Positions 1 through 43,045 of a stretch of DNA of 64,000 nt are shown piece by piece. How positions within the stretch are numbered: the first letter of the stretch is position 1; every line of letters starts with the position of its first letter. The notes beneath the pieces were generated by a model that made no database searches, had not been told where the DNA came from, and saw nothing but the letters and a program-made list of their open reading frames with translations. The position numbers and the translations under genes are program-made. Source of the DNA: Escherichia phage vB_Eco_F25. The stretch lies in the sequence record OP870144.1; one strand, 5' to 3'.

Positions 1-162
1 TTTTCCTTATTAGGCCGCAAGGGCCTTCATAGTTTTAGCGATTTGGGAAACTTCATCATCACTTAAAGAGTTGCGATAACCGATGAAGTCGGAAACAATA
101 CGGAATTTCTTGGTAAACTCAGCAACCATTTTATCACTATTTTTTGAAGCATTACGTGATAA
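1..162 (-). repeat. Direct repeat copy A: duplicated 3' end of rIIA (identical to 319-480)
   Basis: 162/162 nt identical to 319-480; minus strand encodes the rIIA C-terminus (...[33 protein letters not shown]) plus TAA TAA; left boundary may extend beyond the window. Confidence 0.9.
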
Positions 163-316
163 GTTTAGCTTCTTCAGCATTTTTCAAAACACGACGAATT
201 GTGTCAACCGATACACCTTGCCAATCAGCCAATTCCTGTTGGGTGTAATTACCACTTGAATACAATTTAACAATTTCAGCTTGTTCGTTTTTGGTCAGGC
301 ATTTAATATTGTACAT
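152..316 (-). pseudogene. rIIB: rIIB 5' fragment (start codon + first ~51 codons), truncated at the duplication junction
   Basis: ATG at 314-316 preceded by GGAAAATT; translation [51 protein letters not shown] matches the T4 rIIB N-terminus, then runs out of frame into repeat copy A and stops at 152-154. Confidence 0.6.
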
Positions 317-318
317 AA

Positions 319-480
319 TTTTCCTTATTAGGCCGCAAGGGCCTTCATAGTTTTAGCGATTTGGGAAACTTCATCATCACTTAAAGAGTTGCGATAACCG
401 ATGAAGTCGGAAACAATACGGAATTTCTTGGTAAACTCAGCAACCATTTTATCACTATTTTTTGAAGCATTACGTGATAA
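319..480 (-). repeat. Direct repeat copy B (3' end of intact rIIA)
   Basis: Exact copy of 1-162. Confidence 0.9.
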
Positions 481-2505
481 TTCATCAAAGAGATTAGTTA
501 CCGTCCAGATGTCATGACCGATGGTATCTTTTCCACCATTAAAATATACACCGCGTAATGAACTAACCATATTACCAAGTCGTGTATATTCTTCAGAAAC
601 TTCATCTGTACTAAAGTACTTCATCATAAAATCTAGTTCAGGATACTTGATAATTTTATCAATATATCGTTGAGCTGAACTTGAATAACCTACATACTTA
701 TCATAATCTACATCATCAAAAGCATCTATATATAAATCACGCAAAGCTTCAAAAATACATTGGCACTGACCGAGTTCTTTTACCTTTTTCTGTAAAAGCG
801 GACGAATAACATAAAATTCATTAATGCCAATAAGATTAGCCATACGAATCAAAATATTCGTAGATGGATGACAAAGCGATGTAGTACCATCCATAGAGAA
901 AATATCAGAACGATGCATGTATGCTACATAACCAGTAATTTCATCTGCTTCTGATGTGAGCGTAAACAATTCCTCTTTTTCCCAGCGACCGTCTTTAATT
1001 TCAAACTTAAATGCAGTGGCAGCTTTAGGGCGAGGAGCTGTACTTTTTACTGCCTTTGGAATATAACTTTTAACTAAAGCTTCAATTTCTGATAAATAAT
1101 GAATGTTAACTTCATCACTTTCAAACATTGCCATAATATCAGGAAGCAAATCAATCTGTGATTCTACTTCCGGATTAATAAACAGAAGACGCTCATTGTG
1201 ATGAATATTTAAGGTGTTATTAAATTCGCTATCATCTAATGCACGCGCTAATCCACGGACAATATTAACACGATTTTTAATATTATCAATAACAATATTA
1301 ATTTTTGTCGTATTAATACCAAACAGACGATAACTTGATGCAACGGCTGAAGTTTCATGACTTTGTTTAATGCGTTTCAGTCGAGGGTCAAGATTTACTT
1401 CATACACAACCCCTGCATTGCATAACTTACTGTCAGGTTCAAACATGCTCTGCATCTTCTTATATGACAGATTTTTAGTCGTGAATTTGACCGAATTACT
1501 AATCATATAATCTCGAGCAGAATATCCCATCTTCATCAATTCACGGTATGTATGACGAGGAGATGTAGATTCTTTAAATCGTTTTACATCTTCATTAAAT
1601 GCCTTCTCACTGAGCTCTTTAACACGCTCAATAATATTTTTACGAGTACGATCATCTAGTGAAAGAGCCTCACGCGATGGAGCAATATCAAGTGAACCCA
1701 TTGGAAACTTAATATAATTCACTTCATTGCGAATGCTTAACCAGTTACGGTCTCTAATAACGCCATCAATAGGATAAACAATACCACCATAGATAGCATA
1801 TAATCCACCACGATCTGGCCAGTATCTTTCTGGATTTACGCCGTAATAGTCATCAAAATCCGGAAAATAATCAATTTCGCGGTCAAGACCATTAATGATA
1901 GCCAAATCTTTGAATGGTCGCATGATATAAGAAACTTCATAAGCAAAGTTTCTAAAGTCTTTTTCTTCAACTGGAACTACGATTTCAATACCAGTTTTAT
2001 CGTTTGGACCCATTTCTTTTACGAATGTAGGTTTAATCTGCGGACCGTCACCATCCATATAAGCTACATAACCACGAATTTCGCCTTTATGATATGAAGT
2101 AATACTAAATGTATCAGTATAACTAAACGGAGATTTAGAACCTAAACCAAATCCACCAATGAAATCGTTAGATTCAGCCTTAGATGAACTAAAGTATGAA
2201 TTATACAACCCAGGAGAATTATCATCACCCTGAATATCAAAATCGCTCATACCTGGACCAAAATCTCGGCAAACAAATCGCGGATCTAATCGTCCTGGAA
2301 CTTGAATGATAAATTTTTCAGGATTTCCATTAAGAGCATGGGCATCAATCATGTTGGTAATCAATTCACGAACCACTGCGCGAATCTTGTTTGTATACAA
2401 ATCAGATGACAGAATTTTAAATACTTTAGGAGACGCTGTGATGCTAAATGCTTTTGATTTAGAACCATTACCAAGAATAGTTTCTTTTTCAGTGGTGATA
2501 ATCAT
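328..2505 (-). CDS. rIIA: rIIA membrane-associated protein (GHKL/Bergerat-type ATPase domain)
   Basis: 725 aa; N-terminus [16 protein letters not shown] and [12 protein letters not shown]-binding motif; same length as T4 rIIA; tandem TAA TAA stops. Confidence 0.93.
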
Positions 2506-2744: not shown

Positions 2745-2774
2745 ATTATACCACATCCTTGTGGTAAAGTAAAC
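2745..2774 (-). promoter_or_regulatory. T4-type early promoter (-35 GTTTAC, 18-nt spacer, -10 TATAAT)
   Basis: Minus strand GTTTAC(2774-2769)...TATAAT(2750-2745); overlaps the gene 39 stop; drives rIIA.1/rIIA. Confidence 0.6.
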
Positions 2775-4591
2775 TACTGGCTCATCCATTCTTTACGAAG
2801 GTCAGCATTATCTCCCATGAGCATTTCAAAAAGCTCTTTCCAATTCTCAGGAAGTTTAACAACATCATAAACTGGGTTTTGAATCATCTCACGATATTCA
2901 GATTTTTCCAAAGAGCCAAGTCCTTTAATATAACGGATGCTATGTTTAGGTAGAGCATCTTTGGCACTCTCATATTCAGCGACTGTATAAAACCATTCTT
3001 GTTTTTTACCGACCTGAGCGATGATTACAGGAGTTTTGACAAAGCGAATTCTTCCTTGTTCAAACAATTCTGGCCAATTACTAAAAAATCCGAGCAGAGA
3101 AGGATAAATGCTTCCTAGACCATCGTGGTCAGCATCAGTCATAATTGCAATATTATGATAATTCAAGTTTTCAGCTTTTTCACCAAGAACCAATCCAGTG
3201 ATTGCGCAAATATCAAACAGTTCTTTGTTTTTAAGCATATCAGCATATGACATACCCCAACTGTTGAGAACTTTACCACGCAATGGATAACCACCATGAA
3301 GTTCTTTATCACGAACATCAATAAGATATCCGATAGCAGAATCACCCTCAGTCAAGAAAAGAGTAGTATCAGCATCTTTACCACAAAGATTCGCTTTAAT
3401 ATGTTTATGAACCTTGGCTTTAGAAGCCTTTTTAGCTGCTTTAGTTTCAGCTGCTTTTTCTGCTGCCAATTTACGAGCCAAGGCAGCTTCAATAATTGGC
3501 ATTAAAATTGCTTCATTATTTAAAATAGCACGTGAAATCTTTTTAGCATCAAGCTGAATATGACTACGGATTTCACCAAATGGAGAAGTCAGACGCTCTT
3601 TAGTCTGAGAATCAAATCGCATGTTTTTCATATCACGAACAAACATAACGATAGTCAAACATTCTTTAACACGTGCTTTAGTTACATCAATTTTGAATTT
3701 ACGTTTGATTTGTGGAATAAGGTCTTCACAAATATCATCCATAACACAATCAATATGATGGCCACCATTCTTGGTATGAATGTTATTGACGTATGTTAAT
3801 TGACGAAAACCATCCGGTGAACGACCAACCGCAATAGAACAATTTTCTTGTTCTTGAACGATAGCATGTTCATCATATTGACGTGCATATTTCTTAAAAT
3901 TACCCTGAACCTTTTTACCATTAAAGGTAAATTGAATATCAGGATAAACTACCGCAAGTGTCTGGAGACGATCCAGCGTAATGTCAAGATAAACTTGAGA
4001 TAACTCATTAGTTTCAAATGACATAAAATCGGGAATGAAAGTAACGCGAGTTCCTTTCCATTTTCCAGGAATATCTTCCCATGATTTATTTTCCATGCCG
4101 TTTGAACAACGAACTACAATATTATTTTGACCGTCGCCAGTTTCACCGACAAACATCACAGAAAAAATGTTAGTTAAACTAGAACCAACACCATTCATAC
4201 CGCCAGTGACGCGTTCTTTATCATCACCAAAGTTACCGCCTGCTTTTGGAATAGTCCATGCAGCAACTGGGCCAGGAATTTCTTCACCGGTAGGTGTTTT
4301 AACCATCGCTTGTGGAATACCACGACCGTTATCTTCAACTGTTACTTGATTGTTTTTGATAGTAACATTAATTTTATTTGCGAATTTAAACTTAGTACGA
4401 ATACCTTCATCTACTGAGTTATCGATAATTTCATCAATAAGCTTAACAAGACCAGGTACATACTGAACACTTTCCCATTTACCAAACAGAAAGCGCTCAT
4501 GCATTTCATTAGCAGAAGAGCCAATATACATGCCGCTACGCTTTTTGATATGTTCAATATCGCTCAGAATTTTAATTTCATTCTTAATCAT
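2774..4591 (-). CDS. 39: DNA topoisomerase II large subunit, single 605-aa form (T4 gp39 plus gp60 equivalent)
   Basis: ATG at 4589-4591 (ORF-track start is GTG one codon upstream); MIKNEIKILSDIEHIKKRSGMYIGS GyrB-like ATPase N-terminus; no gene 60 split or mobA insertion. Confidence 0.9.
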   Translation of the reverse strand: MIKNEIKILSDIEHIKKRSGMYIGSSANEMHERFLFGKWESVQYVPGLVKLIDEIIDNSVDEGIRTKFKFANKINVTIKNNQVTVEDNGRGIPQAMVKTPTGEEIPGPVAAWTIPKAGGNFGDDKERVTGGMNGVGSSLTNIFSVMFVGETGDGQNNIVVRCSNGMENKSWEDIPGKWKGTRVTFIPDFMSFETNELSQVYLDITLDRLQTLAVVYPDIQFTFNGKKVQGNFKKYARQYDEHAIVQEQENCSIAVGRSPDGFRQLTYVNNIHTKNGGHHIDCVMDDICEDLIPQIKRKFKIDVTKARVKECLTIVMFVRDMKNMRFDSQTKERLTSPFGEIRSHIQLDAKKISRAILNNEAILMPIIEAALARKLAAEKAAETKAAKKASKAKVHKHIKANLCGKDADTTLFLTEGDSAIGYLIDVRDKELHGGYPLRGKVLNSWGMSYADMLKNKELFDICAITGLVLGEKAENLNYHNIAIMTDADHDGLGSIYPSLLGFFSNWPELFEQGRIRFVKTPVIIAQVGKKQEWFYTVAEYESAKDALPKHSIRYIKGLGSLEKSEYREMIQNPVYDVVKLPENWKELFEMLMGDNADLRKEWMSQ

Positions 4592-4643
4592 CACTTATCC
4601 TCGTTTGGTTTCGGGAATATTATACTCCAGTAATCATAAAGCT

Positions 4644-22403: not shown

Positions 22404-23252
22404 TTAATCAACTACTATTGGATGAATAGCATTAAACTTATGAAACGCTTCTGATTTTTCTTTGCGCGAAACACACATGCGAAGAACCTTTAATGGCTCA
22501 TCTTCTTCACCCAACGATTTTCTCTTTTCAATATTCGATGTTTTCCAACGAGCTTGCTCTGGAAATTCTCTATTGATTTGCTCAAGCGCTCTATTATGTT
22601 TAGAATTGCTACGAATTGAACTACATCCACCGGGGGCTTGTGCTTTTCCGGATACAACCAGATATTTGAACAAGGCCAAATGCGGATAACCTTGATTAAT
22701 TAAATTGAGAAATGCATACATATCTTCGCATAAATCAATTTTTCCATACCCAATTTGTTCTGTTGTAAGTTTTCCAAGGTCATACCATGTATTCGTGAAT
22801 CCATATGAATTTTCACGATAATTACCCCAAGATGAAGTAATTTTAAAAATAGGTAGACGAGCATGGCCATGATAATACCCGCAATCCATGGCATCTTCAA
22901 CGTATTGAATCAATTCATAGAACTGTTCACGAGTTAATTGATTAATTTTATCTACGCAGCGACGATCATCTTTCTTTCGCATTGAACTCATACGAATAGT
23001 AGTATCATCATCGATCATCCAAATTCGTTGACCTGCATACATATCAGTAATTGCTTTACGAGTTCCAGCAATTCCATTTACATCATCGGGAATAACTACA
23101 ATTTTAGCTCTAGACCCGTAAGCGTCATAATAAGCTTTTTCTTCGTGTTCACGTACTACAATATGAGGTTCATAATCAGTCGGAAACATATCAAGGGCAG
23201 AAACTGCCCCTACGCGTTGATAGCTTGGAATTACGAATTGAATCATTTCCAC
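22404..23252 (-). CDS. DXD-motif glycosyltransferase in the beta-gt slot (candidate beta-glucosyl-HMC alpha-glucosyltransferase of T2/T6 type)
   Basis: 282 aa; WMIDDD motif; occupies the uvsX-42 interval but is unlike T4 beta-gt (351 aa). Confidence 0.55.
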   Translation of the reverse strand: MEMIQFVIPSYQRVGAVSALDMFPTDYEPHIVVREHEEKAYYDAYGSRAKIVVIPDDVNGIAGTRKAITDMYAGQRIWMIDDDTTIRMSSMRKKDDRRCVDKINQLTREQFYELIQYVEDAMDCGYYHGHARLPIFKITSSWGNYRENSYGFTNTWYDLGKLTTEQIGYGKIDLCEDMYAFLNLINQGYPHLALFKYLVVSGKAQAPGGCSSIRSNSKHNRALEQINREFPEQARWKTSNIEKRKSLGEEDEPLKVLRMCVSRKEKSEAFHKFNAIHPIVVD

Positions 23253-40402: not shown

Positions 40403-41231
40403 TTATATATTTCCAATTATAGCCTTCAACACTTTTACGTTCGCCATTTAAACATTTTAAAATATTTCCTTTGCTAGAAATATTAAAATATTTTGCTGCG
40501 TCTGGTATATAATTAAATGTTTTTAAAAGAACACCATCTTTATATGCGCCAAATAAATTAAGAGTATATTTTTCTCGAAGACGCTGATGTTTCCTTTTCA
40601 TAACCTCAGGATTTGCATACGCCAACTTCAATGAATTTCTGTGTTTTTCTTTTACTTCAGGTTTTTGCATTGCTAACTTAGTTAGCCTGGAAATTTTATT
40701 TCTAACTTCGTCAGTTTTCATTGCATTTGACAAATTTAATAAAGTTTTATTTCTAACTTCAGGTTTTTGCATTGCTAACTTAGTTAGTTCTCTATGTCTT
40801 TTTCTAAAATCGTCATCCTTCCATATATTTTTCGATAATTTTGACATAGAGCGGTGAAATAATTCCTTTTCACTGGAATACAATTTAAAAATTTCATCCA
40901 ATTCATCCGCATTAAATCTATCGGTATTCAAGTTTATCATTCTATGAAAGGCATAACACATTTTACTATTGCTTGTTTTAGCTAAATAGTAATGAGCTAA
41001 CGCATGGTCATAATATGACAAATTAACAATATTCCATTTATCTGTTTTATATTCAGGAAATATAGATTTGGGAAGCACGTGATGTGCTTCCGTTTTTCCT
41101 TTTATTTTAGGATTATTATAATTTTTTGTTATCAAATCAACATATGACAATAGTAAATCATTATTTTCTTCAAATATTAAAGCTAATTTATCATTCACAA
41201 AATCGCAAGGATAAAATCTATCATAATTCAT
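40392..41231 (-). CDS. HNH homing endonuclease (free-standing) between nrdD and nrdG
   Basis: 279 aa; HNH motif EAHHVLPKSIF...YYDHALAHYYLAK; repeated LTKLAMQKPEV(R/K)NK modules; first 13 codons mimic the nrdG start. Confidence 0.8.
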   Translation of the reverse strand: MNYDRFYPCDFVNDKLALIFEENNDLLLSYVDLITKNYNNPKIKGKTEAHHVLPKSIFPEYKTDKWNIVNLSYYDHALAHYYLAKTSNSKMCYAFHRMINLNTDRFNADELDEIFKLYSSEKELFHRSMSKLSKNIWKDDDFRKRHRELTKLAMQKPEVRNKTLLNLSNAMKTDEVRNKISRLTKLAMQKPEVKEKHRNSLKLAYANPEVMKRKHQRLREKYTLNLFGAYKDGVLLKTFNYIPDAAKYFNISSKGNILKCLNGERKSVEGYNWKYINEL

Positions 41232-43045
41232 TGGTGTTTAACCCTATGCATGATTTCTTTATTTTTGCCGAGATTAAATCCGCGTTCGTTCGGATTCCCC
41301 AAATAACCGCAAGTTCTTCTTATTGTGTTCATCTTTTTAGGATCAGTTTCTCCACAGATAGAACAAACAAATCCGTTTTCAGTAGGAGTCATTTCATGAG
41401 TACTTCCGCATGTAAAACATTTATCTACTGGCATATTAACACCAAAATAATCTAAATGTTGTGCAGCATAATCCCATACGGCCTCAAGACCCTTTAAGTT
41501 ATTTTTCATATCAGGAAGTTCAACATAAGAAATGTGACCACCTGTCGCAATGAAATGATATGGCGCTTCACGAGAAATCTTTTCAAACGGAGTAACATTT
41601 TCTTCTACTGAAACGTGGAAACTGTTAGTGTACCAGCCTTTATCGGTAACATCTTTTACACTTCCATATTTTTCGGTATCGAGTTTACAGAAGCGATAAC
41701 AAAGGTTTTCAGCAGGAGTAGAATACAAGCTAAAAGCAAATCCGGTTCTTTCAGTCCACTGCTTAAGATGAGCATTCATTTTAGTTAAAATTTCTTGTCC
41801 AATGTCACGACCGACAAGAATATTCAATTCATGAATACCAATGTATCCTAAAGACACTGAACTTCTACCGTTTTTAAATAACTCAATTATGTCGTCATCA
41901 GGTTTAAGACGAACCCCGAATGCACCTTCTTGGTAAAGAATAGGAGCAACAGTCGCTTTAACTCCTTTTAAGGAACTAATTCTACACATCAATGCTTCAA
42001 AACATAAATCCATTCGTTCATTGAATAATTCAACAAATTTCTGTTCATTGAACTGTGTTCCAATATAAGAATCTAACGCAATGCGAGGAAGATTTAGTGT
42101 TACAACGCCAAGATTATTACGTCCATCAAGAATTTCATTACCAGTCGAATCTTTCCATACACTCAAGAAACTGCGGCAACCCATTGGAGAAACAGGAATA
42201 GATGAGCCGGTGATAGCTTTATTGTTCTTAGCTGAAATAATATCAGGATACATTCTTTTGCTTGCGCACTCTAGAGCAAGCTGTTTAATATCATAGTTCG
42301 GATCGTCTTTATAAAGATTAACACCTTCTTCAACAAACATAACAAGCTTAGGGAAAATAGGAGTTATCCCATCACGACCAAGACCGTTAATACGATTTTT
42401 CAGAATTGCTTTCTGAATCATTCGTTCAGTCCAGTCAGTTCCCGTACCAAATGTAATTGTTACAAAAGGCGTTTGTCCGTTTGAACTAAAGAGAGTATTT
42501 ACTTCATATTCATAAGCTTGGAATGCATCGTATACATCTTTTTCTGTTTTAGATTGAGCATAATTCAACGCATCAGCGATTTGCCATTTTTCTGCATCCT
42601 CAATATGTTTTGCATAGGTGCGTTTAACATAAGGAGAAAGTACTTTATCTACATTAGCAAAAGTCGTTCCGCCGTATTGATGGGAAGCAACCTGTGCAGT
42701 AATTTGTGCCATAATTGCAGTAGCAACTCCAATTGATTTAGGAGTTTCAATCTGTGCATTACCAAGCTTAAATCCGTTCTCAAGCATTCCTTTTAAATCT
42801 ACTAAACAACAATTAGTAAATGGAAGAGCAGGGGAATAATCAATATCGTGGAAATGAATAATTCCGCTTTCATGCGCTTTCATAATAAAAGACGGGACCA
42901 TATTTTTGGCAATGTGTTTAGACACAATACCAGCCATAAGGTCCCGTTGAGTTGGAAAAACACGAGAATCTTTATTAGCATTCTCGTTTAAAAGGTCTTT
43001 ATTAGTTTTATGAATCAATCCTTCAATTTCTTTTTCAATTGTCAT
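41228..43045 (-). CDS. nrdD: Anaerobic ribonucleoside-triphosphate reductase (glycyl radical enzyme), uninterrupted
   Basis: 605 aa; C-terminal glycyl radical motif RRTCGYLG and CxxC pairs; no intron-like interruption. Confidence 0.93.
   Translation of the reverse strand: MTIEKEIEGLIHKTNKDLLNENANKDSRVFPTQRDLMAGIVSKHIAKNMVPSFIMKAHESGIIHFHDIDYSPALPFTNCCLVDLKGMLENGFKLGNAQIETPKSIGVATAIMAQITAQVASHQYGGTTFANVDKVLSPYVKRTYAKHIEDAEKWQIADALNYAQSKTEKDVYDAFQAYEYEVNTLFSSNGQTPFVTITFGTGTDWTERMIQKAILKNRINGLGRDGITPIFPKLVMFVEEGVNLYKDDPNYDIKQLALECASKRMYPDIISAKNNKAITGSSIPVSPMGCRSFLSVWKDSTGNEILDGRNNLGVVTLNLPRIALDSYIGTQFNEQKFVELFNERMDLCFEALMCRISSLKGVKATVAPILYQEGAFGVRLKPDDDIIELFKNGRSSVSLGYIGIHELNILVGRDIGQEILTKMNAHLKQWTERTGFAFSLYSTPAENLCYRFCKLDTEKYGSVKDVTDKGWYTNSFHVSVEENVTPFEKISREAPYHFIATGGHISYVELPDMKNNLKGLEAVWDYAAQHLDYFGVNMPVDKCFTCGSTHEMTPTENGFVCSICGETDPKKMNTIRRTCGYLGNPNERGFNLGKNKEIMHRVKHQ

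Follow-up and report, generated by a model that had tools for sequence, protein, structure and literature searches.

Tandem duplications arise readily in bacteriophage T4, classically in the rII region (PMC9391042, citing Kumagai et al. 1993). The documented cases, T4 rII tandem duplications and T4 segmental amplifications (Kumagai et al. 1993; Srikant et al. 2022, PMC9391042), were selected, involve whole genes over kilobases and carry a novel junction that connects a downstream point to an upstream one. Microhomology at the breakpoints of T4 amplifications and deletions is typically 6–10 bp in one study, and the same source, where it refers to earlier rII duplication work, gives 2–10 bp (PMC9391042). 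Repeats of similar appearance can also be generated during assembly. A guide to phage annotation recommends that T4-like genomes be opened after rIIB; it also cautions that a contig can be longer than 100% of the genome and advises a check for duplicated regions (PMC8785237). When an untrimmed 'circular' phage contig is re-opened at another point, the redundancy shifts to the inside of the record, where it mimics a tandem duplication.

Here we analyse a repeat at the start of the record of Escherichia phage vB_Eco_F25 (OP870144.1). It shares with the T4 cases the locus and the novel downstream-to-upstream junction, whereas its 318-bp unit includes no complete gene and its junction shows 0 bp of microhomology, and its geometry is head-to-tail like that of the T4 rII duplications only if an unseen left copy exists. 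With assemblies of circularly permuted phages that retain an untrimmed end overlap, being longer than 100% of the genome, and are then re-opened to match a reference, it shares identical copies, a repeat at the chosen origin, a blunt junction and the lack of a second copy in relatives. It differs from them in that their redundancy usually sits at both record ends, whereas here a 162-nt part is at the front and the join of the old contig end to the old start would be internal. We conclude that an assembly artefact is likely.

A Tequatrovirus window with the gene order of T4

The window, that is, the whole 64,000-nt stretch of DNA that was analysed, is judged from its sequence to be that of a Tequatrovirus with the gene order of T4, and its nearest relatives in GenBank are ~96–97.5% identical to it. 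Sequence identity together with synteny with T4 likewise assigns rIIA and rIIB as Tequatrovirus genes. Because the core genes keep their T4 lengths (gp43, 898 aa; gp41, 475; gp46, 560; gp47, 339; Dda, 439; gp45, 228), frameshift-type sequencing errors are not indicated, and a search of the window for frameshifts elsewhere, as a mark of poor assembly, found none.

Anatomy of the repeat at the start of the window

Self-comparison of the window revealed that positions 1–162 are identical to positions 319–480 at 162 of 162 nucleotides, with a sharp break in identity immediately beyond (G at 163, T at 481). Exact identity over this length led us to reject a chance origin. We refer to the repeated segment as R, present as copies A and B, and to the segment between the copies as Q; their contents and the open reading frames (ORFs) that they carry are collected in the table. 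Alignment with T4 and with phage JE01 showed that Q followed by R (163–480) is the native order. What is visible in the window is R-Q-R, or 1.5 units, and any Q to the left of copy A would fall outside it.

This anatomy, including the identity of the two copies and the gene assignments, had already been proposed in the initial annotation, and the self-comparison, the ORFs and the T4 alignment all bear it out. The same annotation had the rIIB frame ending three codons beyond the junction, and this is indeed what we found, the stop codon lying at 152–154.

Features at the rIIB-rIIA boundary of the window (a caret marks a breakpoint between two adjacent bases)
Feature	Coordinates	Strand	Description
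Copy A of segment R	1–162	−	Out of native context; starts at the equivalent of T4 position 3; 1–6, part of the rIIB ribosome-binding region; 7–12, TAA TAA; 13–162, last 50 rIIA codons
56-aa junction ORF	10–180	−	Out-of-frame ATG inside Q, then the rIIA frame through copy A
54-aa ORF	152–316	−	RIIB N-terminal HTH domain (51 aa) plus LIT, then stop
Novel junction	162^163		Internal rIIA point ...ACGTGATAA joined to GTTTAGC..., the first base of rIIB codon 52
Segment Q	163–318	−	First 51 rIIB codons plus 1 nt (163–316, ATG 314–316), then AA (317–318)
Copy B of segment R	319–480	−	Native context, 3' end of full rIIA; 319–324, 6 nt of the rIIB Shine-Dalgarno/ribosome-binding region; 325–330, TAA TAA (minus strand); 331–480, last 50 rIIA codons
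rIIA, intact	328–2505	−	725 aa, length as in T4; annotated RIIA in relatives

The only other direct repeat of at least 30 nt within the 64 kb is one of 32 nt at 40654, a short exact repeat (40654–40685) with an offset of 102 nt. Within R itself, a hairpin, AGGCCGCAAGGGCCT, occurs twice, at 12–26 and at 330–344, as part of the duplicated repeat; it falls within the last rIIA codons, immediately before the start of rIIB. It was flagged by a scan as terminator-like on the plus strand, that is, antisense to the genes.

Reading frames created at the junction

The rIIB fragment carried by Q is identical to residues 1–51 of T4 RIIB at all 51 positions and corresponds to the helix-turn-helix (HTH) domain, which scored 28.2 bits with the HTH_7 model against a cut-off of 23.8. 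The 54-aa ORF that contains it is a by-product of the junction. For the 56-aa junction ORF, no family match was found. Neither of the two exact junction products has an entry in an index of 153 billion genes that includes read-run assemblies; an exact look-up of the rIIA protein of the window in the gene index, read-run assemblies included, also returned no entry.

The junction is blunt

The rIIA flank reads ...ACGTGATAA^TTCATC (...GTGATAA^TTCATC). For rIIB, the native flank of T4 is ...TTTAGGGC^GTTTAGC, that of S1P5QW and TH09 is ...TTTAGAGC^GTTTAGC and that of JE01 is ...GAGC^GTTCAGC, which can be summed up over these four relatives as ...AG(A/G)GC^GTTTAGC or GTTCAGC. With the rIIB flank taken from these relatives, the phage's own full rIIB lying outside the window, microhomology at 162^163 amounts to 0 bp on either side. 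Codon 52 of RIIB specifies Arg in all four relatives, and a shared junction base would require a different codon.

The junction itself gave no match in IMG/VR (exact pattern), in GTDB genome contigs or in JGI metagenome contigs (degenerate pattern). One IMG/VR contig was returned by an allele-specific rIIA pattern and was discarded, as it belongs to another phage whose sequence starts at the rIIA stop codon.

No second copy seen in relatives

Used as a query, R (window 1–162) matched 497 places in 494 phage records. Two of the three extra places belong to two versions of pSe_SNUABM_01; an end overlap was considered for this double match and rejected, as the record is cleanly opened inside R. 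A second copy of R was thus not seen in the 494 related records, with one extra place, a copy or partial copy, not traced. The top matches to window positions 1–1500 agree with this count, all of them spanning ~1338 nt, the length expected of a single copy.

The repeat lies at the conventional origin of T4-like records

Alignment places window position 1 at T4 position 3. The T4 reference begins AATTTTCC / AATTTTCCTTATTAGG and ends at the rIIB start codon (...GTACAT), and the novel junction is only 162 nt from the record origin. A 318-nt query made of Q and R had 706 matched places in the 494 related records, 282 of them unsplit, from which it follows that about 212 of the 494 (43%) are opened at the rIIB-rIIA point (282 + 2 × 212 = 706). 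In a sample of 60 records, those opened at the origin begin either at T4 position 1 or at the stop codon of rIIA, and not one begins 2 nt after the T4 convention (AA^TTTTCC), as the window does. Given that the start matches the rIIB-rIIA opening of about 212 relatives as well as the advice of the annotation guide, the window almost certainly begins where the record begins, at an origin set by a person or a pipeline. The chance that a random 318-bp event would span the record origin was computed to be ~0.002.

Closing and re-opening an untrimmed contig reproduces the repeat

We consider it likely that the repeat is not biological, and that an untrimmed 318-nt end overlap was moved inside the record when the contig was re-opened at the T4 origin. 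DNA that is circularly permuted in the manner of T4 assembles as an apparent circle. A contig starting at rIIB codon 52 might then over-run its own start by 318 nt, made up of Q (156 nt of the rIIB 5' end) and R (162 nt of the rIIA 3' end); such an over-run would be expected from an assembly seeded at the first gene, or from reads that extend past the two ends of a linear T4-type reference. The untrimmed contig, Q-R-S...P-Q-R, would have been circularized and then opened anew between rIIB and rIIA, where T4 records conventionally begin. This step would place the 162-nt tail R in front of the old contig start, giving R^Q-R-S..., and 162^163 would be the point at which the old contig end was joined to the old start. 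The phage itself would then have one rIIA 3' end and one intact rIIB.

We simulated this procedure on the relative S1P5QW, closing the contig untrimmed and cutting the circle open where the origin motif last occurs. The R-Q-R layout, the junction string TTTTTGAAGCATTACGTGATAA^GTTTAGCTTCTTC and the 54-aa ORF were all the same as in the window, and the simulated sequence differed from the window by one SNP over 480 nt. The structure and its position at the origin are observed in the window, and the simulated procedure reproduces this structure exactly. The initial annotation had held that a circular-permutation overlap is unable to give such a junction; because the simulation yields R^Q-R-S exactly, that exclusion was wrong. 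We infer that this close-and-re-open procedure, or a close variant of it, was used in the actual assembly. Physical terminal redundancy, by comparison, was rejected as the source of the repeat, as in T4 this redundancy extends over kilobases and is not tied to one place.

Weighing an artefact against genuine rearrangements

The initial annotation had named two alternatives, a tandem duplication and an assembly artefact, and these are the right pair of readings to weigh. If illegitimate recombination had produced a genuine head-to-tail duplication of 318 bp where rIIB meets rIIA (...P-Q-R-Q-R-S...), both full genes would remain, accompanied by a dead rIIA 3' fragment and by a 54-aa RIIB HTH fragment that has a separate copy of the rIIB translation start region. 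The sequence is identical to that predicted by such an event, and the window is fully compatible with it; T4 forms duplications of this type at this very locus, the breakpoint spares the whole HTH domain, and the assembly is clean elsewhere. We nonetheless regard a genuine duplication as unlikely. Its junction would have 0 bp of microhomology against the usual 2–10 bp, the second copy and the junction were not seen in the relatives (one extra match untraced) and in the three contig collections, respectively, no complete gene is duplicated and hence no selective advantage is evident, and the event would have to span an arbitrary record origin by chance. We would also expect a 318-bp direct repeat to be lost without selection, at roughly the percent level per growth cycle under T4 recombination. 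The corresponding biological claim, that a natural T-even isolate would express a free-standing 54-aa RIIB HTH domain beside intact rIIA and rIIB from a duplication formed without microhomology, is improbable on the same grounds. A comparison of the 156 nt to the left of the window with 163–318 had been put forward as a discriminating check, and it does not discriminate, as both an overlap and a duplication predict Q there.

It is also conceivable that R was inserted into rIIB (P-R-Q-R-S), in which case the record would end at rIIB codon 52 without a second Q and the phage would be an rIIB mutant, or that copy A is the end of a chimeric read or contig. R-Q-R is all that is visible in the window, which suits either version, and the rIIB frame would run for 3 codons into an insert of 162 nt before it meets a stop. 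An insertion is a more complex event than an overlap or a duplication and would again lack microhomology, and a chimeric end is not expected to start exactly at the conventional origin; we judge this pair of readings very unlikely. The position at the origin, the absence of microhomology and the lack of a second copy or of the junction in relatives and contig collections all lean towards an assembly artefact, which, as set out above, is causally linked to the record origin. There are points against it. The old contig ends must sit within ~160 nt of the conventional origin, which requires that the assembly was seeded or guided by a reference; the artefact reading does not account for the 2-nt offset from the T4 convention; and the rest of the window is clean, which is not what a generally careless assembly would look like.

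Consequences for the record

If the repeat is an artefact, only curation is affected: the record probably exceeds the true length by 318 nt and includes two small ORFs, of 54 aa and 56 aa, that are spurious, and the redundant part should be trimmed off. A real repeat would be a small duplication of natural origin at the classical rII locus, apparently not selected for, with an isolated RIIB HTH domain as its product. Its interest, for the study of rII function and of illegitimate recombination in T-even phages, would be modest.

Other features of the window

Three further loci of the window were compared with their T4 counterparts. On the minus strand at 41228–43045, nrdD is uninterrupted (605 aa) and thus lacks the I-TevII intron of T4. 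Between uvsX and gene 42, the minus strand carries a 282-aa ORF (22404–23252) at the place where T4 has segA and a 351-aa beta-glucosyltransferase; this ORF may encode a different type of glucosyltransferase. The large subunit of topoisomerase II is encoded at 2774–4594 (minus strand) as one 606-aa ORF, whereas its T4 counterpart is split into genes 39 and 60, with a mobA/60.1 insert and a 50-nt translational bypass. An exact look-up of the 606-aa protein returned an identical one in a single relative, Shigella phage Phaginator (OL615012.1).
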